Assembly: GCA_964187785.1 (NCBI GenBank)
Contig: OZ076409.1
Coordinates: 63,428,001-63,492,000, forward strand
Origin: Amphiscolops sp. MND2022
Taxonomy: Eukaryota
Length of the DNA stretch: 64,000 nt
Direction: 5' to 3'
This document shows, piece after piece, positions 4,923 through 40,245 of this stretch (position 1 is its first letter; the number at the start of each line of letters is the position of its first letter). The notes below the pieces were generated by a model. It made no database searches. It had not been told where the DNA came from and saw only the letters and a program-made list of their open reading frames with translations. Position numbers and translations under genes: made by a program.

Positions 4923-5701
4923 TTAAGCTTCGGTCACCCGTTTTCTAGCTGCATCGCCGCTTTTGTCTTCGCTTTTTGTGTCATTAAAAGAATGCAGAAG
5001 ATGACCCGATGATTTTCTGGGGTTGTCACAAGACGAAATTGTTGCGTGATCATCTTCGGAACTGCTACGTAACTTTTCAGCCGCTATCTCGTTTGATCTT
5101 TTACGTAAACAGTCTGCAAAATTCAGCAACATGTGAGTAATAGCTTTGTCTACTCTAAATTGTGCAATCCAACTTTTGATATCTGTGGAAAGAAATCTCA
5201 CAAATTCACATTTCTCAGGATCGTTGTCGACTTTTTTGATTATATACCCCATTATTTTACACTCCCCTCTCGTTAGTTTTTCCCTGGGTTTTGATACGTC
5301 TTCGGAACTGCTTGAAATTTGATTTCCTGAGTCGTTGCTATCCGCGTTATTCGTTGGATAATCGATTGAGGAGCCGAAAGAAAACAAAGTATTCCCGATA
5401 GTAGTCGTGCGCATGGCCACTATGAACTCTCGTTGGGCAATGTTGCGTTTACTCTCCATCTCATTGGACACGATTCGCAAGACCTTGGTTACGTCATTGA
5501 TGTCATGTAACAAAGTCGTGCTGTTGACTGTTTTGTCCCACTCCGGCACTAGTTCGTAGTTACATAACTCGGAATGCAATTGTTGAGGCGAGAGGTTGAT
5601 GACCATTTCAAGTTTATAAACTCTGCCTAGTTCGGCCATTTGTTTCATGCAAACACAAGTGCCCAGAGATCCACATTCTTCTAGCTTCCAGTCTTCTCCT
5701 G
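4923..5701 (-). CDS. STARD3: STARD3/MLN64-like, last exon: START lipid-transfer domain
   Basis: Acceptor ttttttttccag| at 5702 (phase 1). EDWKLEE...GRVYKLE...PEWDK...QREFI...LSTDIKSWI resembles the STARD1/3 START domain. Stop at 4923-4925. Confidence 0.9.
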
Positions 5702-8301
5702 CTGGAAAAAAAAGAGAAAAAAGTCACGCCAGAGGTCAAATCTTGAGGTCTCGTCAGAGATAAAGTTGAAATCAAAGCCCATTTAGTTTGTCCATTATGC
5801 GAAAAACGGTTTCCATTTTTTGAAAAGCTCGTTGAAAAGTAATCTCGTACATACATTTTTCATTTATTCCAAGATTAATTAATTTTTAAAATGACTGTTT
5901 CTTTTGCCCCTTTTTTGACAAAGAATAATTATCCAACCTGACTGAGCTGTCAAGTTTTAAATTGAAAGAGATCAGTAATTTCCTTTCAATAATTTACTTG
6001 TAACTCAAAAGCACTGTTGTTCTCAAAGGATTCAATTTGCTTCTTTTCCTAGGATTACCGAGCTTTAGCTAAAATGAAAGTATTCATGTGCGCTTGATTC
6101 GCCAGTCGAGTTTAATAAGAACCACACAAGCATGAATAAAAAGTCCAATAATGGTATTCTTTCAGTCTGATAGTGTGTCCTTGAACACTGTCCAACACTA
6201 GTGGAGACTGTTGCTGTTCAAGCATTGCCTGTATGCATTGTAATTTTTTATGAAACCTAAAACATTCAGTAAGCTTGCGGCGGTAAATTTTGTACACTGT
6301 AGTTTCCACTATTCCCTGCTTGAAACTGCATGAAAATTTTTGTAGGATGCCAAGCTAGTTTATCATGATTTTGCAGAGCTCTCAAAGAAAATTCCATGCA
6401 TCAACATTTCACTGATTCAATTTAATTTTATAAAGATGCCAGAAAGATGCATCCTAAATTTGGCGGTGTTCAGAGTCAAAAAGTTTTAAGATGCATTAAT
6501 TCTATTTTTAAATGTTTTGATTGAAGTTGGGGAAGCTGCATTGTAGTAATCCTACGACGTTTTTCCAGGAATACCTATAGGTATACCAATAGGCTCATGG
6601 AACCTTCCATGTTTTGTAGAAAAAACATTAGCCTAGCATGCATGGAAGCAGCATGAAAAACTTGCAAAAAACCAGGCTTGCAATTAAAATCGGAAATTTC
6701 TCCTACATCGTTACCGACATGATCGCGATTGTTTTCGAACTTTGATTTCTCAACAACTCTTCCGAGGTAGTCTGTTCTCAAATAACACGAAGATGATGGT
6801 AGTTTGCAGTTCACATTGTCAACAAAGTTAATTTGTATTTGATATTCTTGCACTACGCAACTTGCACAATAAATTCAAATAATCACTCCCAAAATACTAG
6901 AAGACCACTATTTTGGTTAATTTTAGACATTTTTTCTGAAGGTTTTTAAACGATTTCTTCATAAAAAAAATTTGATAAGATGCTAGTTTTTGTCCCTAAA
7001 TTATGTGGATAATGATACTCCCAAAAACTTTCGAAAACTGTACAATACTTCTATCAAAATTACAAATCAAAAAAGGCCAACTTCGGAATATTTTTTCAAC
7101 AAATAATTTTTTATAATTAGCTTTCAAGTCTTGGTTTCTTAGGGAGTATAAAACAGGGCAGAACTGAAAAAATTGTTAACTGTTAGTTATAAAGTTATAA
7201 ATCATTGTATTTTGAGGAGTTTTGGAGTTTTCCCAATGAATTACGCAAAATCTCAAAAACTCGGTCAGAGGAAAAACTTCTGAAGATCATCTTTGTAGCC
7301 TTGACACCATTCTCTAACTTTTATGTATAACACTTTCTGAAAATGATTTCTTGAAAAATTAATAGCCAAAAGCGTTGTAGATTCGCCAAAACATTATTTC
7401 CACGAAGTTAATGTTATATTCTACGACTAAATTAAGATAGAAAGAAAAGGAGTTAAACTAAAGTTTCTATTCCCAATCTTCTCTGTAATGTCTTCTGTAT
7501 CAAAACTATATACGAAATGAGTATAAAGTAATACAATCTAATTTGAGTTTGTTTGTAAACAACTCTTAGGTACATCAGAAGATTGAGTAGTAGTTTGTAA
7601 CCGAAACTCGGTAGAGGTCATTCGGATGAACCGTACAACAGTTAAAATGTTGAAAAATTCGAAATTTTTAATGAAAATCTTGATAGAATTTTAGAAAAAA
7701 AACTTAATTTTTCACATTGTCACATTTTTAAGATAGATTGTGGCAATTCCGCGTTTCTGTGAAAATTCATAGATTATGAAAATTTTTCAAACTTCTATTC
7801 GTTTCTTGTAGTGATTTCGAAACTTTTGGAACACTTTTGTGTAGGAGCATTTTGGAAAATCACAGAAAAGTTGTTAGAAACCGTCAAAAACACGTAAATT
7901 TCCAAGCCGTTTAAATGAGGTACTGCAAGCACCGCAGCTTGAGATTGTTAACGAGCGGTTTTATAATGTAGTTAAGACGCACGGCATAAACCCTATTTAC
8001 CAAAAAAAAAGTTTTTGGGAATAACCTTGTATGATATTCCCGAACTTTTCACTCTGCTATCAACGGGCATCATGCTCACAAACTGCTCAACTTAGTTTTT
8101 CAAAACGAGTCAATAAAATGTCAAGATTCACAAAAAACAGCTTGGGAGGGACCCTTTAGGCACGTCCGACTCTGTAGGTTTCATTGACAAAGTAAAAAAT
8201 GAAAGGGGGGACCCTTTGGACTAAGTTTGCCTTGGCCTTAGGTGGTTTCAGGATTGTTTCTAAAAAGTGGACCGATCAGTGTGAGGTATGTGGTCAGAAG
8301 A

Positions 8302-9513: not shown

Positions 9514-9792
9514 GTAGATCGTGTAATCTGACCCCAATCTCGAATGCTTCTCTCGACTCAATCTCTGCCATTTTCTCTATGGTGCTGAGATCTTCGTCTT
9601 CTTCCAAAATTGGAAGTACAATTCGGTTCTCCTCGCCAATCTCGCTGCCGTTCACTGTGACGTAGATGCTGTTGGCGTCTTCGTGGCCAGTAGGGCGATG
9701 CTGTGATGATGACGTCAACCCGACTCTGGCCAGTGCGTCGTTCACGTCTGGCGCTACTTGACCGTTCGGCAAGTTGAAGTTCGTATGATTAG
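9514..9792 (-). CDS. STARD3: STARD3 exon 5: linker and start of the START domain
   Basis: Acceptor tttttgtacag| (phase 1) and donor CTAC|GTTAGT (phase 1). The 279-nt exon keeps frame with both neighbours. Confidence 0.8.
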
Positions 9793-13113: not shown

Positions 13114-13346
13114 CTGATTGGTTAGCGTAGTTGCGTAACTTCTTGAAGTCTACCATGTAGGTGGCGATCCAGGTCATGGCGAAGGAGCCGAGGATGGTGA
13201 AGTAGGTGACGGGCTGGCCTGAGTCACTCATGGGGTAGAGGAACACCTTGGTGAGGAGGAAGGCCGATGAACAGACTGCACACAGAGCAGCCACCATCCA
13301 GTGGTTGCCACTCATCATCAGGTACACCAGCACCAGCACCGAGTCT
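13114..13346 (-). CDS. STARD3: STARD3 exon 4: MENTAL domain, second half
   Basis: DSVLVLVYLMMSGNHWMVAALCAVCSSAFLLTKVFL...SFAMTWIATYMVDFKKL matches the MENTAL pattern HWW.IA....SAFL..KV...SF.LAW.ETWFLDFK. Acceptor gtaccag|, donor CAG|GTTAAA. Confidence 0.9.
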
Positions 13347-13523
13347 CTGGTACATCATAAACAGGGATGCCGATCCAATAACCGAACCGTACATGCATCA
13401 TTTTGATATGGCTAGTTTGATATCCCGATATCCCCTAGTTGAGACAAAGTTCTCTCAAAAAATGCTTTCAACATCCTACAGAATTTCTTTGGTTGGGGTC
13501 TTCGAAATGGAGAGTTCTCCAAG

Positions 13524-14511
13524 CTGGGTTGGATGCATAAAACACCTATGTTTAATTGAAACATATGTTTAAAACGCATGTTTTAAACGATTAAAACAAA
13601 GGGTTTAAAAGATTCAAAACATTAAAGTCTCAAATCGCACATCGAGTTCAAAGGAGTAAATGTGATAAGTCACTTGATATTACCGCGCAAACATTGGATC
13701 ATCAGTTCTATCGCTCACATAGACGTGCAACGGCAATACGGGACAGGCACGCGCTTCATACTACATGTCATAAATTCTATTTTGTAAATGCTCTGCATTT
13801 TAGGGGGTGGAATGAATGAACGAATGTATTTAATTTTGGCCATTTTTCAGATAACATGAGTTCAGAAGGACGTCTTAGGGATCCTATTTGGGTACACTAC
13901 GACGAAGTTGAAAACAACAAAGCAAGGTGCCACGAATGCCCGCCACTTTTTCAGCCTTAGTAAAGCGAATGAAAGAGCACTGGATAAAGATGCATGATAA
14001 TGAGACAGAAAGTGACGCTCCAACTACACCAAAACAACCGAAAAATTCAAGTTTTGTGGTTTCAACATCAAAGAATGAAAAAGAGGAAATGGATAAATGT
14101 GTTGGGCGATTTTTCTTGGCAACTATGTTTAGGCTCTCTGCTCCAACCTGCGACCCGGGTATACGCCACCACAACGTAAAGTATTGGAGCTGGTATTTTG
14201 GACAAGATATACGATTTGGTAACAAGTGATGCCAAGAAGCTGAACGGAGAGCAAGAAAGTATCCGGTTTGGCCTCTGGAGGTTTGGAGCGTGTATTTTCC
14301 AGCATGGGATATGTTCATTCCAATATGCGCAATCGACTAGGACCGGAGAAAGTTGAAATTATTTGAGATGTCCTAATGACTAAATATGATTTTACTGCTT
14401 TTTCAATTTTTTAAGTAGAAAATATAACTCTTTGAAAACTTATGTTTCAATCAAACCGTTTTAAACATTCTCAACGTTTTTTTCTCACTTTTGTGTTTTA
14501 ACCCAACCCTT
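13524..14511 (+). mobile_element. Internally deleted hAT DNA transposon in STARD3 intron 3
   Basis: From ATG 13856, a BED finger (DPIWVHY...KARCHEC / frameshift / MKEHWIKMH). Near 14270-14360 a hAT dimerisation motif (SGGLERVFSSMGYVHSNMRNRLGPEK). Degenerate TIRs ctgggttgg..taaaacac / gtgtttta..ccaaccct. Confidence 0.85.
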
Positions 14512-15042
14512 TTTACAAGGAAGAAACACATGACTTCAAAAAATCTTGAAAAAAATCAGCTTAAATTTTGAAAATCTTTCAATATACGCATTCTGTGTCA
14601 TACTGCGTGTTATAGTGTTTACAAGTTAATAGACGTGTTGAATGGTTTGTATAGATTCGAGTAGTTAAATACACGAGTTGGCTGACTTGCTTCATTTTCC
14701 CTTTATCAATTATAAATGATGCACTTGCTTGTTGCACATCTGTAAGCACCCTCAAAACGTGCCGAAAAAAAGGGGTCGAATTTTCTTTTTAAAAATCTTT
14801 GGGTTGACTCGATTTCTCAGACTTGAGGTTGGCACACAAATATAGCAACTGAGAGCTAACGCAGGTCATAAGTTAACACAATTTTGGCGTAGGTTTTTGT
14901 TTGTAACAATGTTCACGTAGGTTCTCCAATCTTTCAAAAAATACATTCTGTACAAAGATCTAGCCAAGTCCTCAAAAATCATGCTAGCGAAGGTTCTTTC
15001 AAAGAATATTTTAACACTAAAAGGGTCTATGAAAGAACTTCG

Positions 15043-15500
15043 AACCAGAGCCGAAAGTGCGGTAAAGAAGTCGGAAACGAATGAATATGTTGGAATACAA
15101 ATTGAAATTGCATGGACAGCAAAGACAGTTTTTTAGAAAATCAAAAATGGTTGTTTTTGGTCCTTTTGGACTAAGTTTGACTATGTTTCTCAATTTTCAG
15201 TCATACATTTTTCATGTCATTGCACACATGAGACCCTAATATGGGGTTATTTGACTATAAAAATATCGTTCGAATCATGTGGACAGTTTTTGAGAAAATG
15301 GCAATTTTTTTCATCATTTTTGGACTAATTTGTCAAATCTCGGCCATGCCATTTCGTTGCCATTGCGCACACACGAGCACCATTGGATGAGGAATAAATG
15401 TGCTAATCATCATAAAATCGTATGAAAATATTTTGAGAACTTTGAAATTTTCATTGAAAGGTAGAAAAAAGGTACGACTGCATATGAACAGAAGTTTTTC
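15043..15500 (-). mobile_element. HINE family B copy (related to 42966-44133)
   Basis: Minus strand has atatgcagtcgtaccttttttctacctttcaatgaaaatttc at one end and ccgacttctttaccgcactttcggctctggtt at the other, matching the ends of the + copy. Confidence 0.7.
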
Positions 15501-16793
15501 CCAACTCCTACAACATTTCAATGTGAAATGAACGAAGATTCTTATAGCAATCGGCGGGAAAACTATAACGAGACGCCCGCTGACCAGCGAGACATTTTCC
15601 GCCGCAAAACGTTCTACAACGAGATCAATTTGAGGCTCATAAGCAGCCAATCCACTACGAAACTGCAAAAAAAACTTGTATCACGCCAGTAGTTTTCTGA
15701 AGTTTTTAAAACCAAATGTTTCAAATACTAAATACAAAATCAAAAAAGTCACAAAATGTCAAAAACATATATTTTTGGCATTTCGCGGTCGATTTCAGGC
15801 TTTTTCCTATAGAAGCCTGCAATTATGTCATCAAAAGACCTACTAGCTAACGAATTCAATCGTCTTTGAAAGTTTTCAATATTCTGAATTCAAAGCCTTT
15901 CAAAAACTACACATAAGTTGCATAAACGAAGATGTTGTAATATTCCGATTTTTCGAGTCTCATTTGGAGTCATTCTGCAGTGTTTTAGAAGCAAAGCGCT
16001 GAAACGCTCTCTTCAAAACGGCGTACTACACCTACCTAAAAATTTCTTTCTTGAAACTTTTGCACCTTCTAACCACTGAAATCGCTCGGAAATCCTACAG
16101 AAATTGCATGAAGAACGACATCAATTGGAAAATTTTAGAATTCTTGAAATTGTTTGAGTCATTATGAGGCATTTTTCTATTACAAACTGTCTTTTTTTCA
16201 TGACGGAAGCCTACTGGACAACGTTTTCTTCCCTTGTTGTACAGTTTAAAAATTTTAATCCACGAAGTGTATCGAAAATTTGAAAAAATTTGAATAACAA
16301 TTTTGAAAGTCGGAAAAAAGTGGATTTTTTTGTATTTTTCGGTGTCAATTCAAGGTATTTTTTAATTGAAAATTGGATTATTCTTTACACAAAGGAACGC
16401 CAGATAGCAATTTTTTCTCGTTGAACGTTTTCAGCATTTTAATCCACGAAGTCTATCGAAAGTTTAACAAAAATTGCATAAAATCTCTGAAACTTGGGAA
16501 ATTTTGGAATTTTGTCATTTTGGGGTCATTTTGGGTCATTCTGGGATCAGTTTGGTCATACCCAAAAAAATCCAAAATTCTCTACACATCGCACAAAGCT
16601 AAATTTTTGTGAGTTGAATCCTGTGGGTGACACTCTTCAGTTTGAATGTAAACATGGCATATTTTGTAAGAAAAAAAACCTTTGAATCAAATATTTTCTT
16701 TTCCCATATGGGAAAATGCCCACCGTATAACTATTATAATAAAAGGTGGTACTATTGCCATTCGAGCCTGTAGTTATAATTTTGTCTGCATCC

Positions 16794-17003
16794 CTGGTTA
16801 TTGACAACAAGACAACGTCGGCCATTGAAGTGGAGATCTTGTAGTGATTGATCTCGTATGAGAACATCTGAAGGAATGTCTGGTTCTTCTTCTTGATGCT
16901 CAGCATGATGGTCCACAGCAGGAACACCAACAGGAAGTCACACAGACAGAACAGACCGAATGTCCGTCTCGGAATCTTCTGATCGTTTGATGAGTCATAC
17001 GAA
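16794..17003 (-). CDS. STARD3: STARD3 exon 3: MENTAL domain, first half
   Basis: RRTFGLFCLCDFLLVFLLWTI...EINHYKISTSMADVVLLSITR matches MENTAL RRTFCLFVTFDLLFISLLWII...Y.F.TS.FD. Acceptor ccacag| (phase 2). The 3' boundary is non-canonical (see findings). Confidence 0.88.
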
Positions 17004-18359
17004 CTGTGGAGTACCAACCGCCAAGCATTTCATTCACTGACTTTTCAAATAACCTTTTAACGAACCTAGACTTAGTAACTCACTTGGCAAAAAACAAGGT
17101 TTCAGCAATGATATTCATTGTCTGAAAACATGTAAAACTTGAAAATAGTATATCAGAATAGTTCATTAATTTCGCTATCACTCATCAAATCATCTATGAT
17201 CACCTCTTTGTTTCATTTGGAAGCATATTATGAATAATTGTTTGATTCTCATTTTAAAAGAGAGCCTACCTCGGTATAAATTTTATCTACTTCAGGTTTT
17301 TTCCACAAAACTGCGTGGATCTTTTTAAAAATAATCGATTTTTGTATTCTTGTCCATTTAGAAGGTTGATATGGCCCTATATATTCCATGTATTACGAAT
17401 GTGCTAGAACTATCTGACCACAATAGTGGATGGATATATCGAAACTATATTTTGATCTTGAAAGTTTTTAAACAAAACATTCTTGTTTTTTTTCGGTTTT
17501 ATAAATCTTCAAAAATGGTTAATGTATGAATTGCCTGTTAAGGGGCTGTGAGGGTGAAATTTGCTGGGGGCGCTGAGGTTGACCCATGTAATGGGGAAGG
17601 TTGTTCATTACCCGGGTGCAAAACTTTTCAGGAGGCTTCCAAAGTAGGTTCAAACAGCTCACTTGTGATGAAAGATCTTGCGATTAAGTTATATCAATAT
17701 AACCAAAATTGTATTCATGAAGTATGAATATGAGAGAGTCGATTTCAATTTGGAAGTATAAGAATTCATTGTTGGCTATTGTGACGCCGTTTGAAATTAG
17801 AGGTACCGTCTTGTAATTTCAGCGTAAATTTCATCTTATGAGTTTTTCATTAGATAATTTAAAATCCGAGGTGGTATAAATTGACTTTTACTTCTAATGA
17901 GGTATAAATTTAGAATATTTAATGAGGAATATGAAAACGTCGGATTAGGCCGTGGAAATTTGGCCAACACTAGAGTATGAACATAAGATAAACCAGTTAG
18001 ACAGCTGATGAAACGCGTCTGTTTTGTTTAAAATAAAAATAACAAATAGACCAGACGGCAGTTGGAGAAAATTGAATCCTTGCTTCAGTAGTTATCCTTA
18101 TGTACTTTATTTATTTCCTTTCCTTGATTCAGTAAACGTGGGTACATTCTGTATGCAATGTATTTATGCAATCATAATTTTTCGTATGCACGGAGCGAAC
18201 TAAACAGCGACAGGAAGAGCCTTGTAAATAGGTGATTTATGCACCTACCAGTACATACAAGTATAGGAAGTCATATATATTTGTAGGTGCATGTTTTGTG
18301 TGGTTGTAAGTGTAAAATATGAGGGTGTATAAGTCACTGTATTCCAGCAAGGCAGTTAC

Positions 18360-24500: not shown

Positions 24501-27500
24501 TGTAAAACGGTTAAGTAACGCGTCCAAGTTTATTCGGTCCACGTAAATGCCACTCAAGCTGAAAAAGAACATTGATCAACAAACTATACTTGTTCCTCTT
24601 TTTGTTGATACATGATTTTATACATAGGTACATTAGATTAGTTTTGATGCGGAAACATCGTTGCATTCTTTGATATAAAGTATAGTTTGGCATAGAAGAT
24701 ATATCAATATCCAAATTGTTTTACCTCACCAAGTAGAAATAAAACATGGCGGAGTCAGTCATCTAATTTACAATTTTATACTGATTTTTCAGAAACAAAG
24801 AAGATTACACAAGAAGCAACACAAATCGAAGTTCCGAACTTGGAAGCAACAACCGACGGAAGGAAATAATTCACATCGAACCAATGGCTCGAATGATTCC
24901 GGCAATATACAAAACGAATATTTAAAAAGGATAAAGCGGAATTAATCCGGGGAGAAGAAATGACACAAAACGATTGGGCCATAAAAGAAACCAAGATACA
25001 AGGAGATTTCATATGGGGCATCGGTCCAGAAGCAATATATCAAAAGACAAAAGCAAAATATAAAACCGAACCGGACAAAACTGTATTAAAAGATTTGCTC
25101 CGGTTATTCAACGAACATTTGTTACCGAAAAGAAACACATATCACAACCGCGGAGAATTTTTTGGACCGAACAAATTGAACCCGAGATTTCTGGCGGAGA
25201 TCAATAGAAAGTGAAAAAGAATGTAACTTTGAAAATATAACCGCCAAATAATTGCTAAAAAATAACGAAAAATGAGCATTTGGAAAAAAATGAAACATGT
25301 ATACGAAGATTGTTTCGTATCACCAGTGGTAAAAACGGCAAAGAACGACAAATAGGTAAAAATTGCGCTCTAGACTTACGAAAACTAAGCGACAGCTGCA
25401 TTAAAGTCTGTTCACAGGTGCCGAAATGGAAGGATTGCTGAATCAAATTTCAGTGGAATTAACGAAAGACCGAGCGAAAGAACTAATGATATCAAAAATA
25501 GACGTTGATTACACATATGGTCAAAAGAAGTGATCGAAAGAAACAAGCAGACAATGTGTATTTGCCATTAACGACGGGAACATCAGCGGCTACTCCCGAT
25601 TCAAAAAAAAAGATTTTACGGATTAGCCGACGTGCCCTCAATTTTCGAGGAAAAAATTGACCGAACATTTTAATATTGCGCACCCGCATGGCTAGACGAT
25701 ATCGTAGTAGCATAGTAGTAACACGAGGAGATCGAAAACACCAATAAAAGAAACTGTTCGACGTGCTGAGAAAACTAGAAAAAGCCGGATACAAAGCAAG
25801 CGAAATGAAACCAGAATTTTTTTCATCACAAAACAAAATGGCTCGGACATGAAACAGACGCAAACTGGATCAAACCGAATAAATCAAAAGTCAAAGCTAT
25901 AATGGGTTTGAAACACCCGGACAATCAGAAACAACTAAAATCTTTCCTCAGGCCAATACAGTACCTGGTAAAATTTCGACCGAGATTATCGAAACGAACT
26001 GAGAAATTACGAAAATTATTGAAGAAAATCCCAGAATTGAATTGGGAAACAGAAGAAAACAATTTTGAAATGATAAAAAATATGTTATCTGAACAACCTT
26101 GTTTAGCACATTACGCAAAAGATAAAAACAACATCGTAACAAACGATGCAAGCAAAAGCGGTCTCGGAATAACATTAAGGCAGAAACAAACACGGAGAAT
26201 TGAAACCAATAGCTTCGGAACCAGATTTCTGAACGAAAGCGAGAAGAAGTATTTGATTGGAGAGCTCGAATTTTTAGCAGTCGTGTTGGGGTTAGAGAAA
26301 TTCCGTTCTTACCTATACGGAAAAAAGGTGTTTCTGTATAACGATCATCAAGCATTTGAACCTCTAATCAAAAGAAACAGATGTAACAAACAATACGACG
26401 CTAGACTAATCAAATCGCTAGACCGGCTAGCACACGTCGATATTTCAAAACAATATATAACCGGAAGCAATCCAAAATTTAGGGCTACAACTGAAAACAT
26501 GTATGATGAACAATATGTAATAAACATTCTCACAGATCAAGCCGAATTGAATTTGAAACACGGAAGAATCTTCACGAACCAATCACAACACGCATCGAAG
26601 AATAGAAGTACGTACGAACGCAAATAGAATAACCAATCAGAAACGAGTAGAACAATTGAGAAAAACCGATAAGTTAACAAAATGTACGAACAAACGGAAA
26701 CCAGTCCGAACAGCAACTCGATAAAGTTAAAACGTCAAGAAAAGTTACAAAAACGGAATTGTCAAAAACTGCCATTATCGTCCTCCGAAGAAAAAATGGA
26801 CCGTGGAGATTTTCTTTGGGGAGCAACAGCAGAAGTCGTGAAAATCACTCGAAGACGAGAAAAAAGTCCGAAGATGAAAAGATTATTTGAGAGACGATTG
26901 GAGATAGCAAGACCCAGCACGATGAGAAGATGCTAGGATAAGAATGCACGAAGAACCATCTGAGTCCCGTCGCGACTGAACAAAAGAAGCCAGAAGGAAA
27001 GAGCTCAAATCGACGGAGAACTCATACAACGCACAAACAGATTGGGGGAGGCTACCAATCAATCCAAGCAATCGAAGATGAACCGATCCAAGTTCAACTG
27101 GAGAAGTAACTCCCAGGAGAACAAACGAATGACCCAGAACGTGAAGGGGACAATCAAACCATGCGTGGAGATAATTTGCCAATTGTGGAACTAAGGAACT
27201 CCAACACTGAGGGCAAAGAAGCACACTACGTGCAAATTAACCAATTATTCGGAATCACCAAAGGGAACAATGTGACCGAAAAGATCATAAACCGAGCGGA
27301 AATGGATTTCATGCTAGATCTGAAAAGCATGACTGCAAAATCAGCAACGGATGCCGAATTAAACCGGGTAAAATTACCACTGAACAGAGAAGATTGCACC
27401 ATGGCACCGAAACAATACAGGCAACAATTTGAAAAACTGTCAGTGAAATGGGAATTAACACTCCTAAACGACAAAATCATAGTACCAAACGAATGCCGGA

Positions 27501-29316
27501 AAAGATTGTTGGACATGCTACATTTGGGACACGCGGGAACCATCATAATGACAGGAGAAGCCAAATTTTTTGATGGCCAAACATCAACAGAGATATTAAA
27601 GATAAAGTCAAAAACTGCATAACCAGCCTAGCATCTGGTAACAGCTTAAAATAACAAACGAAAGTGAAAAATTAAAAACTCTCTCCCAACCCGGACAAGA
27701 ACTTCAAATCGATTTTACCGGAAAATTACACAACCAAAAACTGAACGGCGAAAACCAATTACACATCGCAGTAGATAGATTTGGTAATTATCCGAACGTT
27801 AAAATTAGCTAAACTTCCGAAATGAAAGTGATAAAATTCCTAACACAGAAGTTTAACCTGTACGGAATACCGGAGAAATATGAATTGGAAACATGCGGTG
27901 CGTTCATTTTAAAAAAATTTAATGAATTCTGCCAGTAGAAGAATTTTGAAACAGAATACGGAACACGGAGAATACACACTGGTACGGGAGCATTAGAATG
28001 CGCAATATAAACCATAAAGAACTTGGTAGTGGCGAAATTAGAAGACAATTTGTGTTTGAATGTGGTAATACAGCGATAAAGGTATTGCGATTTACTATAC
28101 ACACGGGATTAAAATTAACACCGTTCGATGTGCGTCACGGCAGGAACCTGCGAACCGAATCAACTAATTTGGTTGAAGACGGTAAATCCTACCTTTCTGA
28201 TTGGTCCGAACTATCTGTTTCAGCTGAGTAAATGCCAAAAAGCCCCATCTACTGTCGAGAGGTGACGAGGGGGATATAACGAATTATCTCGTGTTGACGA
28301 AAACACGAGCCGAGGAAAAAGCGGTGGATAAACAACCTAAACAAAAAGGTTTGGTAAGTACCCTTTTACATTTGTAGAGAAAAACTTCATTAGAAAATCT
28401 TTAGAACGTAAATTTCAAAAGAAACAGTAAGCGGAAACGAACACACCGTAACCCATCGAGAATGGAAAATTAATTCGTCGAAAACATATTTCGGGAAAAA
28501 TTTTATTTCGGACAGATAAGAAGAAAAAACAGGCACCGCAAATCGGAGACGAAATCACACCGAAGAACCGACATTGTTTCCGAGGTGTCGACGGAAAATA
28601 CATTCAGTGTAATGAAACACTCCGGGACATAGTCAATGAAAACATGAAAAAATTCAAAACCGGATACGAAAATCTGAATCTGAGTCAGAACGTAAAGAAT
28701 GCGAAATCGACGAGGAATGCAGATTTTGAAATGGAGAATACGGACACTTCCGAAAAGAACGGGTATGAACCGATCAGCAAAAACCGCGAAGACGAGTTGA
28801 ACTTACACACGGACGGTGAGATACCTACCGGTGAGAATGAAAATTATTATTTAACAACCGAAAGTACATCTATTAGAAGATCAAACCGAAAACGCACGCA
28901 ACCTAGTAGATACGGGGAGTGCCATAAACCAAAAACTTTTGGGCGTGAAAAATAAAAATGTATGGTTTGTTTCAGGACTAAACCGAACTAACTTAAGAGT
29001 ACTGCCGAAACCATCGGACTTCGAAAGAGAGACAAGCCCATGCCTGTAACCTCCAAATTTTAAAAGGAAGCCCACAAGGGGGAAAGTAATACGATGAAAT
29101 ACCGCGTCCGAATTCATTCGGTTCACCTAAATGCCAATCAAACTGAAAAAGAACATTGATCAACTATAATTGTTCCTCTTTTTGTTGATACATATTTATA
29201 TACACATGTACATTAGATTACTTTTGATACGGAACCTTTGTTGCATTCTTTGTTATAATGTATAGAAGATATATCAGTATCCAAATTCTTTTACCTGACT
29301 AAGTAGAAATAGAACA
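24501..29316 (+). mobile_element. Old, decayed Ty3/Gypsy LTR retrotransposon with both LTRs
   Basis: Diverged LTRs at 24501-24746 and 29085-29316. PBS tggcggag at 24747, PPT aagggggaa. TSD ctttc/cttgc. RT/RNase H ORF 25902-26627 (DASKSGLG, ELEFLAVVLGLEKFRSYLYG) followed by integrase remnants (LHLGHAG). Confidence 0.9.
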
Positions 29317-33234: not shown

Positions 33235-33869
33235 CACCCCGTTTTCTCTTGACTGTGGAGACAGTGTCCAGACTTCACTGTCTGGTTGAAGTTTCCACAG
33301 CTCGTTGCTTGTTTCAGAGTTGTGTCCAGACTTAGTTGTCTGGTTGATACTCTGTAAACTTATTCAATTTTTTAACGGGGTCCAATTTTTATTGATTGAT
33401 CAAAATTGCGAAAGCTGACTCAAACTTTCTTTAATTACTAGGAAAAGGTTTCTAGTCTTATTCCGGGCCCACATTTAATTTTTCCGATAGTTACCGTTAA
33501 CAATTAATTCTTTTTAGAGTATTCGCTTTTTTTATTAATTAATGATTTTATAATTCAGTTTTCATCTCTCACTGTTAAAATAGTGTCCGGACTTAATTGT
33601 CCAGTTGAAATCCTGCCAGTCCATCTCCTTTAACAGCAACTCGCTTTGAGATAGCGTTTCTAGCGCAACTTCGGGTTTTGTCTTTCGTCTCCGTATTCTG
33701 TGACTACTTTTACACCCCAAAAAGTCAATCCTTTTCCAACTTTCCACGATCAGCCGCGTCTAAGCTTCGTTGCTTGGTTGACGCTGACGAAGGGAAACCT
33801 GAGAACTTTCCTGATCATCACCCAAAGACCACTACCTTGTTGAGTCTATAACGCAATCACTCGAGTAGA

Positions 33870-36716
33870 ATGGCTAACACCATGCAAGAAAAAGTCAAAA
33901 AACTTTTCGAAAGTCGTGCCAAAGCCGAGATCGAGTTACAGAGATTGCATGAGAAAGTCCAAGATGCTGTGGAGAACAAAGATAGACGTGTCCGCATTGA
34001 AAGACTTGTTACTTCCTGTGACGAAGCAATGACTAAATTGTTTGCCAAACATGAACAACTTTTCGAACTCGCAGGCAAAACAGAAGACCCGTCACTTGTT
34101 ACACAAGATTTGGAAACTTGGTTGAAAGAAGTGACCACTCGAAACGATGAGATTTTAAAGAAGGCTCGTGACTACATCGATCAATGTCCACTCGTCGATG
34201 CAGCATCTCAATCGTCAACGACTGTCACCAAAAGCAAGCAACCAAGCAAAACGTCAACTTCAAGGACATCCAGACAATCGAGAACATCCAGTCAACGACA
34301 AAGGGACTTGCTAATTGCCAAACAACGTAAGGTGGAGATAGAAAGGCAAAACGAAGCCGCCCTTAGATTTGCAAAGCAACAGCAGGAACTGGAACTCGAA
34401 CGTCTACAGGAAGAACAGGAACTACTTAGACTGAGAACCGACCGACTTAGGAAAGAACAAGCACTTGAAGTTGAACAGTTAGAAGAAGAAAACCGAAAGA
34501 AACTAGCTGAAGCAACACTCACCGAGCTTGAACTGACAGACGACTTGTCGGACTCTCAATCAGAGCTTCTGGACACGGTGACGCAATTAGCTACTTCGAC
34601 TAAAGCTGACGATACGCTCCGAGTAAGCGAGTGGGTTAACAATTCACCCATTACCACTGCAAGTCACCCCGCAAACACTGCAGTTTTGGACACAAACACT
34701 GTTACCGTTACTACTGCAGCGCCACAATCGGTCGATATGGGGGCTCCCACAAAAACCCCATTACCTAGCAATCCAGTAGTGATTTCTGTAACTCCACCGC
34801 CCGCGCCAACGGCTAACGACAAGCCATCAGTTACGGGACTAGGTTCATTAGTTTACATACCAACTATGGAACCTGTCCAAAATCCACAACTAACTACGAC
34901 TCCTCCGAGAACTTCTCCTTTGATTACCGCTACGGTACAGCCAGCGCCCACAGTCACAGTTCCCGCAAGCCATCTTCTTCCAAACTTATCGGCCTGGACG
35001 TTCCCGACAGGACCAAGCAACCCGCATGTTGGCGCAACTCCTGTAACCACGAATCAGAATGTAATTCCGACAGTTCTTCCGACTACCAGTGTTGCCACAA
35101 CAACCTCGCCTATTATTCCAGTCACCGCTGGAGGAACCGTATACTACATTAACCCGACGTCTATGGCAACAGTGTCCGCACCGAACAGCGCACCAATTCC
35201 GAGTACATTCCCGACCATTCCTTCAGCAACGCAATTTGCACCTCCTACGTTCATCTCTGCACCGCAACCAGCGACAAGCAGTTTCACTGTTCAAGATCTT
35301 GCGCAACTGTTAGCTTCGTCAAAGAGGGACCACCTCCCGGAATGGAAACTGGCACAGTACAGTGGAGACCCACTTCAATGGCACGAGTGGTATGGTCAGT
35401 TCAAGAGTGCCATCGATTCAGCCCCGCTGACCGATGACGTAAAACTGACTTATCTAAAGACACTGGTGTCAGGTAAGGCGAAGACTACTATCGCAGAGTT
35501 TGCCTACAGCGGTACCATGTACAAAGATGCGCTGAAAACGTTGGAACGAAAGTTTGGGCAACCTCAAACCGTGGTTAGTGCCTATCTTGACAAACTTGCC
35601 AACTATCCGCCAGTCAAAATGCACAATAGCGATAGCATCATCAGCTATTCTGCCACTGTTTCCTCACTTTTCGGCGTTTTCCGATCCTTGAATTACCTCC
35701 AGGATTTGTCGAGCGCTTCGCTCATGAACCAAGCAGTTCAAAAACTTCCACCGAATTTGAAGGAAGCCTGGTCTATGAACACTGTCAAACGGAACCTGGA
35801 CCGGCCGACGTTGATTCACTTCAATGACTGGCTGAAGGAAAAAACAGAAGCGCACGAACGCATGAAAGCCACCTCCAGTAAACCAAGGACTGAAGAAGCT
35901 TCTGCCAACACTGTCACTAAGACAAAAACGGGAACCAAGGTTTTTGCGGCGACCACGAGCAATCAAGTGAAAACTGTCCCCAAGATTAGAAGTGAGAAAC
36001 AGTGCATAGCCTGTAAAGACAGTCACCCACTGTGGCGATGCTCAGTATTCCGCCAAAAAACTCCAACTGAAAGAACCAAGCTGGCTGCCGAGAGTAAACT
36101 ATGCTTTTCATGTTTGAACGACGGACATTCATTCCGACAATGCCCGCAACCAAGAAAGTGCACCAAGGAAGGCTGTAGTAGCTCGCATAACACTTTACTG
36201 CACGGCGCCGATAGAATTTTCCCTCAGAAAAGTCTCGGCGATACAGAAACTACCCAAAGTAGTAAAACAAAGGTCAATCAGAAACAAACCGGCAGTGAAA
36301 GTTCCGGCCTGCCTTCCGTAATTGATTACAAAAGCTTGTTGCAAATAGCAGAAGTTCAGTTGGACTCATTGTCAAGCTCCGTGAAAGTCCTCGCTTTATG
36401 CGACTCAGCTTGTAGTCATTCTTGGATCTCAAGGAGTTTAGCTCACAAACTACGAGTCAAAGGCTCAGCAACCAAGTTAACCGTACACGGGATAAATTCC
36501 CAGCAAGTGGTCGACACAGAAACAGTTGAGCTTAAGTTGACGCCCTTTCATTCGGGTGGCTCTTGTTCAACTTTTCCTGTCACGCCTTATGTCCGAGATG
36601 ATTTGAAAGTGGGAAACGACGTCATCGACATTGACAATCTGAAAAAGATTTACCCACATTTAGAACCGATCCCCCTCAGCAAGTACAGCTATTCAAAGAT
36701 GTTGTACAGATATTGA
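33870..36716 (+). CDS. BEL/Pao gag + aspartic protease (frameshifts into pol near 36700)
   Basis: Coiled coil, long Thr/Pro linker, BEL gag core (YSGDPLQWHEWYGQF...KLTYLKTLVSG), three zinc knuckles (CIACKDSHPLWRC, CFSCLNDGHSFRQC, CTKEGCSSSHNTLLH), protease ALCDSACSHSWI. Confidence 0.93.
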   Translation: MANTMQEKVKKLFESRAKAEIELQRLHEKVQDAVENKDRRVRIERLVTSCDEAMTKLFAKHEQLFELAGKTEDPSLVTQDLETWLKEVTTRNDEILKKARDYIDQCPLVDAASQSSTTVTKSKQPSKTSTSRTSRQSRTSSQRQRDLLIAKQRKVEIERQNEAALRFAKQQQELELERLQEEQELLRLRTDRLRKEQALEVEQLEEENRKKLAEATLTELELTDDLSDSQSELLDTVTQLATSTKADDTLRVSEWVNNSPITTASHPANTAVLDTNTVTVTTAAPQSVDMGAPTKTPLPSNPVVISVTPPPAPTANDKPSVTGLGSLVYIPTMEPVQNPQLTTTPPRTSPLITATVQPAPTVTVPASHLLPNLSAWTFPTGPSNPHVGATPVTTNQNVIPTVLPTTSVATTTSPIIPVTAGGTVYYINPTSMATVSAPNSAPIPSTFPTIPSATQFAPPTFISAPQPATSSFTVQDLAQLLASSKRDHLPEWKLAQYSGDPLQWHEWYGQFKSAIDSAPLTDDVKLTYLKTLVSGKAKTTIAEFAYSGTMYKDALKTLERKFGQPQTVVSAYLDKLANYPPVKMHNSDSIISYSATVSSLFGVFRSLNYLQDLSSASLMNQAVQKLPPNLKEAWSMNTVKRNLDRPTLIHFNDWLKEKTEAHERMKATSSKPRTEEASANTVTKTKTGTKVFAATTSNQVKTVPKIRSEKQCIACKDSHPLWRCSVFRQKTPTERTKLAAESKLCFSCLNDGHSFRQCPQPRKCTKEGCSSSHNTLLHGADRIFPQKSLGDTETTQSSKTKVNQKQTGSESSGLPSVIDYKSLLQIAEVQLDSLSSSVKVLALCDSACSHSWISRSLAHKLRVKGSATKLTVHGINSQQVVDTETVELKLTPFHSGGSCSTFPVTPYVRDDLKVGNDVIDIDNLKKIYPHLEPIPLSKYSYSKMLYRY

Positions 36717-36717
36717 G

Positions 36718-39700
36718 ATGATCCTTGGTCAGGATGTCTTCCACTGTATCCGCCCATTGGAGTACTTCGAAGCCGACCGTCCGAATACTCCGATAGCCGT
36801 CCGTTTGCCGTTAGGTTGGGTACTGAGTGGTCCACTTCCTTCCACTACGGGTCTTTTCTCGACTTGTTTCAAAGCTGTCAGTAGCTCAGAGAATGATTCG
36901 ATTCTTGCCGATCAACTTCGCAGCTGGTATGACATGGAGTCATTCGGCGCCTACAAACAAGCTGATTCACGCTCCGCAGCCGATGCGCAAGCGATGAAAA
37001 TTCTTGAAGAGACAACATTCAACGATGGATGCCGTTACCAAGTTGGTATGTTGTGGGCCGATGACGAAAGTACGTTACCGAACAACTACGTCTCGGCTCT
37101 CGTTCAACTCAAGTCTTTAGAACGCCGCCTAGGGAAAGATCCTCAACTGAAAGAAAGTTACAGCAAAACAATCAAAAAGGATTTTGAAAAAGGGTATATT
37201 GTTCAAGTCGATAAATCCGAATGCTTTCGAACTGATAACCGTCGTGAATGGTATTTACCACATCACCCCGTGATACATCCTCACAAACCCGGTAAAGTGA
37301 GAAGAGTTCTGAATGGCGCCGCAAAGTTTCACAGTTATTCTCTGAACAATGCTCTTTTAACTGGTCCAGATCTGCTGCAAAGTTTGATCCATATCGTTTT
37401 TAGATTCCGTCAATACCCCAACGCCGTATCCGCCGACATCAAAGGAATGTTCCTACAAGTAGGGGTTATTCTGAAAGACCAGCCGTCTCTTCGCTTTCTG
37501 TGGCGGGAAGACCCATCAACTGAAGTTGCTGTTTTTCAAAACGTAAGGCACATCTTCGGTTCGAAAGACTCACCGACATGCGCAAATTACGCCCTAAAAA
37601 GGACCGCTACAGACAATGTTGAAGATTTTCCGACTGTCGCCTAGAGCGTGCAAACAAACTTCTACATGGACGACTATCTCGAATCTAGTCCGACAGCTGA
37701 AGAAGCCATTCAAAAAGCTAAAGATTTGACAAAATTGCTTTCAATTGGTGGATTTAAGCTAATAAAGTTCATGTCTAACGACTCCAACATCCTGCAACAA
37801 ATCGAACTGAACTCTGACAGCCAAACCAACGATGGTAAACTGTTACTATCAACAGAGGAATCATCACATGTACTTGGCCTCAAATGGAACCATGCCTCAG
37901 ACACACTTGTTGTTAGCCGAGGCACAACTCCTGATACAAACCGAACTGTTACTCAAAGAATTGTCCTCAGCCTCGTCTCCGCAGTTTACGACCCTATTGG
38001 CCTCGTAGCTCCGTACACAGTGAAAGCCCGACTTCTACTCAAAGACATATGGAGACTGAGTGGCCAGAAATGGGATGACATTCTCCCAGATGACATTATA
38101 ACCAAGTTTCTTGACTGGAGTTCTGAATTGGGTACACTTAGCGAACTCAGGACTCCGAGAAGTTATTTCCAACAAAAGGTGGAACGTCTGGAGTTACATA
38201 TGTTTGGGGACAGTTCACAAGATGTTTTCAGTGCAGTAGCTTTCCTCAGAGGCAAAGTCATCAGCGGCGATGACAGTTCTACTGAAATAGCCTTTGTTTT
38301 CGGCAAAGCACGAGTCGCACCAATGAAAGCTTTGACCATTCCTAAACTCAAACTGCAGGCCGCACTGCTTTCCGCTAGATTGAGAAATGAAGTGCAGCGT
38401 GCTTCAACTCTGCAAATCGAGAAGACTTTCATGTGGACCGACAGTACTACGGTGCTTCAGTGGTTACACTCCCTTGAAAATTAGCCTGTATTTGTTGCAA
38501 ACCGCGTTGCGGAAATACTCGAACTAACGACTGCCGACGAATGGTACCATGTTCAATCCGCTGACAACCCTGCGGATGCTGGAACTAGAGGTTTGTCCGC
38601 CAAAGGTCTTTTGCAGAGTAGTTGGTTAAGCGGTCCCAATTTCTTGAAAACAAATGAATGGCCTTTCAAGCCATCCGAAGGCTTCCGACCGAAACTGAAA
38701 CAAACTAAATTGGATCCTACCGATCAACCCAGTACTGAGTCGTATACAATGCTGTCTGAAACCCAAGTTGCAACAGCGAAAACTTTCGAGTGGCAGAAGT
38801 ATGGCTCGTACGAGAAACTCCTGCGCATTGCAGCCTATGTTTTACGGCTTCTGTCGAGAAATAGGGACTACAGGACAAACTCTTGCGTCATCACTGATCC
38901 TACTGAACTTGGAAATTCTGAACAACGTCTTCTCTACCTGACCCAAGCAGAATCATTCCATGCCGAAAAAAGTAACCTGCTGAAGTCAACCCCGCTCAGT
39001 AAATCTTCGAAAATTGTCCGATTCTCCCCCTTTATTGGACCAAACGGTCTTTTACGAGCGTCTGGCCGAACAAGACTACTCGAAACTGCCACATTTGATG
39101 TCAAACACCCCATTCTATTGGATGCCCGTCATCCACTAGTCAGACTTTTCCTAGAACATTTACACTCCCAACATTGCCATCAGGGCGTTGACTATCTGAG
39201 AGCGTTGGTACAGCAGCGATTTGCTGTAGTCAAGCTGAGAGCTGTCCTGAGAACCATTGTTTCGAGATGCCTAACATGCCGTAAACGAAATGCTGAAACA
39301 CTGACTCCAATAATGTCCGACCTACCTCGCGAAAAGCTGGCGTTTAAGGAACCTCCTTTCTCAAACACTGGGATTGATTACTTCGGACCGTTTTTCGTAT
39401 CAGTGAAAAGGTCGACTGAAAAACGGTGGGGCTTCCTTTTTAATTGTCTGACGACTCGCGCCGTTCACTTTGAAGTTGTTCCCAGTATGGATACCAGCAA
39501 TTGCGTGATGGGGATTGAAAGATTTTGTGCCCGCCGTGGAATCCCCATCAGTAATCTGGTCTGACAACGGGACAAACTTCGTTGCCAGCGAGAAAGAGCT
39601 TTTATCCAACATCAAAATTTGGAATCAACAAGTTCTCAGCGAGTCACTTGTTAAGAAAGGGATCAAGTGGAAGTTTAACCCTCCAAGTGCCCCCCCACCA

Positions 39701-40245
39701 CGGAGGTGTTTGGGAACGTCTAATTCGTAGCTTTTTTCTACGCCGTTTTAGGGAACCGCCGTTTGACAGACGAAATCTTGACGACGACGTTTTGCCTGGT
39801 GGAACAATGTCTCAACGCCCGCCCAATCACACCCGTTAGTCCTGAAGCTACTGACATCGACACCCTCACAGCAAATCACTCTCTTCTTGGAACACCTAGT
39901 TCAACATTGCCGTCACACTTCCGCCCCGAAATAGACCATCGAAAGCGATATGTTCGAGCTCAAACGTATTGGGACGCAATTTGGAATCGTTGGCTCAAGG
40001 AGTACGTTCCACACCTCAACTGTCGCTCGAAATGGTTCCAATCGTCAGACCGACATCTGAAAACCGGAGATCTTGTCTGGCTAGTTGAGCCTACCGCACC
40101 AAGAGGACACTATCCACTTGGTCGCGTGGTGAAGTTAAACTACGGCACCGATGCCATCGCCCGTTCAGCTGAAGTCAAGACCTCAACCGGAAACCTTGTT
40201 CGCCCAGTTGTCAAGCTCGCTCCCGTTCTCCCTATTTCCGAGTAA
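36718..40245 (+). pseudogene. BEL/Pao pol (RT, RNase H, integrase) with in-frame stops and frameshifts
   Basis: WYLPHHPV, LNNALLTGPDL, FYMDD, YDPIG, LHMFGDSS, KARVAP, TGIDYFGP and WSDNGTNF. TAG at 37642 and 38482. Frameshifts near 39545 and 39690-39740. Confidence 0.93.

Follow-up and report, generated by a model that had tools for sequence, protein, structure and literature searches.

Intron gain is seldom caught in animals, and GG splice donors are very rare. Where maize Ds elements are spliced, GT sites are used and the splicing is mostly imprecise. Sections of Gozashti 2022 (PMC9860276) and Mikina 2024 (PMC11282704) describe introners as elements that carry one splice site, co-opt the other and sometimes add codons, in agreement with the first-pass annotation of the locus studied here, which had pointed to introners with one TIR-derived splice site and one co-opted. 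Introner families classed as hAT are given for plants, fungi and the tunicate Styela clava in part of the supplement of Gozashti 2025 (PMC12130899); the 5′ sites named in the methods section of that study are GT, GC, GA and AT, while gt, gc, ga, at or 'NC' stand in the 13 hAT rows among the matches listed. We found no acoel name in most of the files of this supplement, and the parts of the study covered hold no Eurytemora family. Eurytemora affinis itself has GA/GG donors at ~10-12% of its introns, mostly GA, for which no origin was proposed (Robertson 2017, PMC5714493), and a passage of the same paper cites a frequency of 0.014% of introns for human GG donors. In part of a preprint on Symbiodinium, GA donors are described as converting to GC (bioRxiv 10.1101/2020.10.14.339549). 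Fritillaria borealis has MITE-derived non-canonical introns according to sections of Mikina 2024 (PMC11282704) and Soo 2025 (bioRxiv), and a reference title in the maize Ac/Ds study of Du 2011 (PMC3260210) has Ds1 spliced as an intron. Our searches, which covered literature other than subscription papers and some supplements, found no report linking a hAT terminal inverted repeat (TIR) to a GG donor or describing such introns in acoels. Both hAT introners and GG donors have precedents of their own; it is the link between them that these searches did not turn up.

The intron that we describe lies in the 1.07-Gb genome of Amphiscolops sp. MND2022, a convolutid acoel, within the 64,000-nt stretch of DNA on G000:C1 that was analysed as a whole (the window). 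The host gene, identified as STARD3 by its MENTAL and START domains, lies on the minus strand with its coding sequence split into five exons. The intron had first been called STARD3 intron 3, but it is really coding intron 2 (our numbering counts coding introns). The features of the locus are as follows.

17535..17608, minus strand: STARD3 coding exon 1, with its ATG at 17608 or 17587 (tblastn with protein P0004 and junction scoring; protein P0247 starts at the upstream ATG)
17004..17534, minus strand: intron 1, GC-AG with a CAG/GCAATT donor, 531 nt (junction scoring)
16794..17003, minus strand: exon 2, first half of MENTAL (Pfam PF10457 positions 4-60; tblastn with P0004)
16797..16804, minus strand: exonic 8-mer before the left TIR, putative left target-site copy, placed by analogy with the MITE family (4/8 against the right flank)
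16785..16796, minus strand: left TIR remnant CAGGGATGCAGA, across the exon-intron boundary, putative source of the GG donor (sequence comparison)
13347..16793, minus strand: intron 2, GG-AG, 3,447 nt (tblastn and junction scoring)
15124..16718: nested repeats in intron 2, three blocks, ~77-80% identical to their best copies elsewhere, where searched
13518..14510: two more nested repeats in intron 2 (14510-14273 and 14120-13518)
13362..13373, plus strand: right TIR remnant CAGGGATGCCGA (as on the plus strand), matched to the left TIR
13347..13361, minus strand: 15-nt spacer ending in the acceptor CAG, putatively a decayed target copy (+4 nt) plus the host CAG
13114..13346, minus strand: exon 3, second half of MENTAL (positions 63-132 of Pfam PF10457, continuing those of exon 2)
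9514..9792, minus strand: exon 4, with GT-AG introns on either side (13113-9793 and 9513-5702)
4923..5701, minus strand: exon 5, START domain and stop (Pfam PF01852)

Exon 2 ends in ...ACCAG (16794), and intron 2 runs from GGATGC (16793) to ...TACCAG (13347). The bases at these positions had been read correctly from the start: the intron begins with GG, no GT lies at the junction, and ACCAG is present at both ends. When all donors were scored with AG acceptors, the gapless GG join reached 398, compared with 380 for GC and 375 for the best GT. Protein P0004 (513 aa), which is identical to STARD3 exons 1-3 at 162 of 165 residues and, given its 2,036-nt contig, is probably the mRNA of a close relative, reads LLSITRDSVLV at the junction without insertion. 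Of 99 proteins aligned, 96 span the junction segment and 94 of these are equal in length, and the positions of Pfam PF10457 are continuous across the exon 2-exon 3 junction. The first-pass annotation had likewise aligned the join to vertebrate STARD3 without gaps. Judging from these homologous proteins, splicing of intron 2 would be exact at CAG/GG.

Two other placements of the donor had to be weighed against this one. With splicing at a GC donor (16767), or at a GT deeper in the intron, 8 or more residues would be added and no GG donor used. The GC site had been named early on as an alternative; it is out of frame with the CAG acceptor and does form an in-frame GC-AG model with a GAG acceptor at 13345, and the same gene has a GC donor in intron 1. 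However, this model requires that GAG, 2 nt behind the CAG, together with a donor lacking consensus at +3 to +6, its score is the lower one (380), and among the 96 homologs just 1 has a longer segment, by a single residue; we consider it very unlikely. The second placement moves the boundary by two bases (AT..AG, 16791-13345), giving an identical protein at an equal score with one synonymous base of difference, and would make intron 2 a minor-type intron, but neither ATGCAG nor GGATGC resembles the U12 donor consensus. Further introns of the same build, described below, bear on both placements.

The GG donor lies within one end of an inverted repeat, as the first-pass annotation had pointed out: 11 of the 12 bases at minus-strand positions 16796-16785 agree with those of 13362-13373 in reverse complement, 15 nt before the intron end. 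The chance of a match of at least 11/12 is 2.3e-6 per position (40 shuffles of the window) and ~1e-4 in the last 40 positions of an intron, or about one per 10,000 intron ends. A repeat finder run on intron 2 did not include this 12-nt pair among its longest 25. The final CAG of exon 2 would itself be TIR-derived. The spacer expected from such an insertion is 11 nt (an 8-bp duplication plus 3 nt), and no intact 8-bp target duplication was found at intron 2, where TCAATAAC and TTTATGAT agree at 4/8. The interior consists largely of other repeats, of which the one at 14120-13518 is 76-89% identical to six other genomic places; no other genomic copies of the first ~75 and last ~170 nt were found.

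We found intron 2 to be missing in two relatives. P0247 (87.6-kb contig, 160/165 identical) is unbroken through exons 1-3 and diverges exactly at intron 3, reading into intron sequence, and P0248 (310-kb contig), which clusters with a Symsagittifera roscoffensis protein, is without introns 1-3 and diverges only at intron 4. Their contig sizes and this read-through indicate that both are gene calls on genomic DNA without introns 1 and 2. The comparison with relatives that had been proposed for this locus therefore shows intron 2 absent from both, provided that their genomic origin is as it seems. Because the genomic ORF of a 97%-identical relative is without it, intron 2 appears to be an intron gain, and it occupies a new position missing in relatives, as expected of an introner. 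Intron 1, which has an inverted repeat at its ends (10/13, 18 nt before the acceptor) and only one copy in the genome, is likewise missing from the genomic ORF of P0247. We consider it very unlikely that this STARD3 copy is a broken allele, or that GG is an assembly error for GT. At least one MITE family copy (L191) does lie in an exon-like frame without an in-frame acceptor, but STARD3 exons 1-3 are still 98% identical to the relative's protein while the intron repeats are 11-24% diverged from other copies. In addition, the far TIR independently has the complement of G at +2, and GG is common to six genes.

The ends of intron 2 resemble those of a hAT-type MITE family in the same genome. A first search with the 12-mer gave 52 matches, 40 against 12 by strand, and no family; this became visible only after the TIR pattern was changed. 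The pattern CAGGGATGCCRAAW had 181 genomic matches against 10 for a control, with frequent inverted pairs, and belongs to MITEs with TIR CAGGGATGCC and 8-bp target duplications. In all eight short inverted pairs chosen by coordinates alone, the flanks match at 6-8 of 8 positions, four of them perfectly; six pairs 14-18 kb apart have flanks that match at 4/8 and are shared among them, and are therefore part of a larger repeat. Across 24 MITE pairs, 16 of which had been picked for good duplication, T at position 2 and A at position 7 occur in 31 of 48 orientations. The family has both features expected of its type, namely an 8-bp target duplication and a short TIR that starts with C/TAGGGATG, and maize Ac/Ds, to whose TIR start the locus had been likened, has a TIR C/TAGGGATGAAA and an 8-bp TSD in the relevant part of Du 2011 (PMC3260210). 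For the hAT dimerisation domain (PF05699) there are at least 150 genomic matches, of which 6 of the best 30 end in a TAGGGATG-type TIR; the exact family TIR end CAGGGATGCCAAAA was not found on a transposase copy among these best 30 of at least 150. The first 9 bases of the STARD3 TIR pair are those of the family TIR. Subterminal similarity between nine intron ends and 48 MITE ends was not above that of 200 shuffles, and no shared TIR pairs were found among the relatives of the interior of L093.

Five further GG-AG introns have a far TIR, in a sodium channel, an ENaC (L095), a GPCR (L339) and two unnamed genes (L337 and L346). For the first coding intron of the sodium channel, the GG join scores 273, GC 260 and GT 257; both acoel orthologs are gapless at the join, and a paralog on C10 is without an intron there. 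A sodium-channel exon of the genome is 81% identical to the Convolutriloba macropyga and 77% to the Symsagittifera roscoffensis protein. In the ENaC, the GG join keeps Pfam positions contiguous, although the E-values are weak, and in the GPCR both flanks match 7tm_1 and the join falls in frame inside a membrane helix. L337 and L346 are in frame, with TIRs matching at 11/13 and 12/13; their exons gave no Pfam match. A GC-type escape in the ENaC and the GPCR would probably place charged residues in membrane helices, which further disfavors the GC donor in STARD3. An AT..AG slide exists in the sodium-channel intron too, but there is no gapless slide in ENaC, GPCR, L337 or L346, whereas GG..AG fits all six, and we take the minor-type reading to be highly improbable.

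Two GC-AG introns, L357 and L343 (RING finger), were compared with their own far TIRs: L357 differs only at +2 and L343 at +2 and +10, and this mismatch at +2 suggests a GG-to-GC conversion. L218, a copy of 513 bp, has a perfect duplication whose last bases are TAG and lies in frame within an FN3-like exon after an FN3 exon; the L218 exon itself gave no Pfam match. Its target ends in AG, so that one extra codon would result. The target duplication is intact in L218 and L358, 6/8 in L357 and generally weak (2-6/8) in the five introns with an 11-nt spacer. The spacer from far TIR to intron end is 15 nt in STARD3, 7 in the sodium channel, 11-12 in the ENaC and 11 in L337, L339, L346, L357 and L343, which were themselves found by that spacing.

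Among 50 other sites from the 12-mer search, we inspected 47, and two (sodium channel and ENaC) held up. A motif match in ATP9 was discarded, as the motif is exonic and a GT donor lies ~20 nt further on, no in-frame acceptor was found at an SLC6 site, and the remaining inspected sites showed no gene evidence. For the pattern TIR+8+CAG, 30 of 35 matches were examined and five had an in-frame partner. L363 (motif exonic) and L360 (GT donor used) were rejected; L358 has a perfect duplication in a coding context that is not clear, six matches resemble the beginnings of exons for which the DNA inspected offers no partner, and the rest are repeats or ambiguous. The pattern is not enriched by raw count, with 17 matches against 39 for a 7-nt and 33 for a 9-nt spacer among the first 100 matches listed, and only 35 against 23 for a control. 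In a further and weak control, 0 of 12 acceptor-like TIR+7+CAG sites, hand-picked and including four from one repeat, had an in-frame partner within 2.6 kb.

Because intron 2 is missing in related acoels, starts with GG and has inverted repeats that match a hAT-type MITE family, we judge it likely, with a probability of roughly 80%, that it is a MITE insertion into an exon, which the ordinary spliceosome would remove via the element's CAG/GG donor and a host CAG acceptor. Together with the five further GG-AG introns of like build, this sustains the hAT origin first proposed for it. A MITE copy would have inserted where an 8-bp target precedes CAG, turning target X plus host CAG into X, element, X, CAG. 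Cuts after the first three bases of the TIR and after the host CAG, 11 nt beyond the far TIR, would then restore the exon base for base, and a target ending in AG would add one codon instead. The U2 spliceosome may read the weak GG donor via the strong exonic CAG, +3A and +5G; the common U1 end can form 7 Watson-Crick pairs with the donor, and exonic AG and +3 A are present in 6/6 GG donors, four of which were found by a pattern fixing these bases. Later, other repeats would have accumulated in the interior and the target copy would have eroded, with no damage to the exons, and in some such introns the +2 G may have changed to C, yielding a GC donor. One carried and one co-opted splice site with the frame kept is the DNA geometry of six GG and two GC introns, and at the DNA level the mechanism appears clear and recurrent. 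A single genome would hold the element from which the introns stem, a young copy in an exon, older GG introns and introns converted to GC, with relatives that are without the intron. This offers a base-exact, testable model in which a new intron and its non-canonical donor arise together, and it gives a prediction for other GG/GA-rich genomes.

The first-pass annotation had also concluded that 5′ splice-site recognition is relaxed in this organism. A GG donor is supported in six introns, but the conclusion is overstated for the organism as a whole. Two genes that had not been picked for a GG or GA donor, ATP9 and the channel paralog, gave 37 resolved junctions out of 40, of which 36 are GT (three of them called by tie or second-best score), one is GC and none is GG or GA; at the 12% of Eurytemora, 0/37 would have a probability close to 0.01. 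The first channel gene gave 16 resolved junctions out of 22, 15 of them GT and one GG. U6 has a canonical ACAGAGA box in the 12 copies read. Among the 23 U1 matches listed (42 candidates scored), most have a normal 5′ end and several are variant, and none of the 23 is a variant complementary to the GG donor. Given the absence of GG donors from the 37 junctions in unselected genes and the ordinary U1 and U6, tolerance of GG appears to be narrow and tied to a strong CAG/GGATG context.

Like introners as parts of the cited sources present them, the acoel introns would stem from non-autonomous DNA transposons with TIRs and TSDs, with no change or a whole-codon change to the coding sequence. Unlike introners, their donor is GG and the TIR also gives the last three exon bases. 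They are also long, repeat-filled and dissimilar inside, with only the TIRs in common, and would therefore be missed by a similarity screen. Introners are recognised as introns alike along their length, a likeness that we did not find among these introns; judged from its DNA, STARD3 intron 2 works like an introner and falls outside membership by similarity. Eurytemora likewise has GG donors in which the exonic AG and +3 A are obligate, at lineage-specific positions and alongside a normal U1 end (PMC5714493), whereas in the acoel GG is rarer (0/37 unselected introns) and linked to the end of a transposon. The introner-like elements of dinoflagellates (Roy et al., in part) resemble the acoel introns in their 8-nt TSD classes, several intron-creation frames and a shift from GA toward GC, but their donors are GA instead of GG, they number in the thousands and splicing is transformed, whereas the acoel remains mostly ancestral GT-AG. 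Spliced maize Ds elements are mutant alleles, in contrast to the fixed gene structure in the acoel. Fritillaria, in sections of the sources above, is likewise an animal with MITE TIRs and TSDs at intron ends and a U2 spliceosome, but with dominant AG-AC/AG-AT ends, duplicated U2AF and altered snRNA methylation; in the acoel introns the acceptor is an ordinary CAG, and nothing but the +2 base departs from the norm. More tentatively, with somewhat less than even confidence, we suggest that CAGGG-starting hAT ends are ready-made, length-neutral introners in any GG-tolerant animal, that the acoel is gaining dozens to hundreds of such introns with donors maturing from GG to GC (perhaps GT), that the same route explains GG/GA donors elsewhere, e.g. 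in Eurytemora, and that annotation and introner screens excluding GG miss them. Gene models of the acoel lineage will break at such introns, including those of the sodium channel and the GPCR.

A different account makes the inverted repeat functional whatever its origin: as in the nonconventional introns of euglenids, pairing of the ends would allow a weak donor, GG or GC, to be used. In STARD3 intron 2, the junction pairs with the last 32 nt at -22.2 kcal/mol, reaching into the exon, compared with -17.4 for the best of 500 random intron windows, and the TIRs are better preserved than the duplications. However, pairing would mask bases needed by U1, U5 and U6, the fold of the sodium-channel intron is unremarkable (z -1.7), and for five cases the search pattern itself required a conserved far TIR, the ends found without that filter being more decayed (8-10/13). 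On balance we regard a pairing function as unlikely. An end-to-end inverted repeat score of at least 8 occurs in 5/5 non-GT introns and 1/53 GT introns, where three of the five had been preselected for a TIR-like donor and the two GC introns had not. Both of these GC introns, found without motif selection, have inverted ends, in keeping with a pairing function, and one of them lies at an old intron position, common to a GT intron in the paralog; a simple gain gives no account of this shared position.

A further intron gain is likely in the ATP9 gene of Amphiscolops sp. (loci L174/L175, contig C1 of the genome assembly), judging from comparison with a 99%-identical frame (P0126, on a 109-kb contig) from which its 2.5-kb GT-AG intron is missing; no TIR was seen at this intron. 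Inverted ends (10/13) were found 12 nt before the acceptor in a GC-AG intron of a sodium-channel paralog (contig C10, ~4,928,761-4,930,026). In the other channel gene the same position is occupied by a GT intron, which simple gain does not explain. Separately, the domain III pore exon of a sodium channel on contig C5 is present in two tandem versions (L163:5296-6302), which are possibly mutually exclusive.

A copy of the hAT-type MITE with a 7/8 target duplication lies inside an exon-like frame (L191:1500-2918) that we take to resemble kinesin. This frame had no Pfam match and no in-frame acceptor was found for the insertion; the locus is possibly a null allele or a pseudogene. Six units of 14-18 kb (L219-L230), bounded by the same MITE ends, with identical flanks and with retroelement-like frames within, represent a larger repeated unit. 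Translated frames in the window mark retrotransposon remains at three places:

33852-40242, retrotransposon remains
24897-28952, retrotransposon remains
2-905, retrotransposon remains

By the look of their translations, these are presumably long BEL/Pao-like frames and Gypsy-like fragments.

An SLC6 transporter exon terminates in CAG|GGATGC, the donor type of STARD3 (L070:852-1003 and 6710-6916), with neither an in-frame acceptor nor a far TIR found for it. At six loci (L335, L336, L344, L361, L362 and the trypsin exon L359), the far-TIR motif precedes an apparent exon start at 11 nt and no partner was found within 9.5 kb; some of these may be insertions at old acceptors. On contig C2 (2,333,178-2,359,517), a TIR-like motif followed by CAG recurs in fifteen tandem copies spaced 1.2-3.8 kb apart.

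Among the 23 U1 matches listed, changed 5' ends occur in L120, L126 and L127, in L114, L121 and L128, in L115 and in L116. The first three are predicted to pair perfectly with CAG|GTTAGT, and T is the most frequent base at position +3 of GT donors (21/53). L114, L121 and L128 have one upstream sequence in common, together with a longer variant end.
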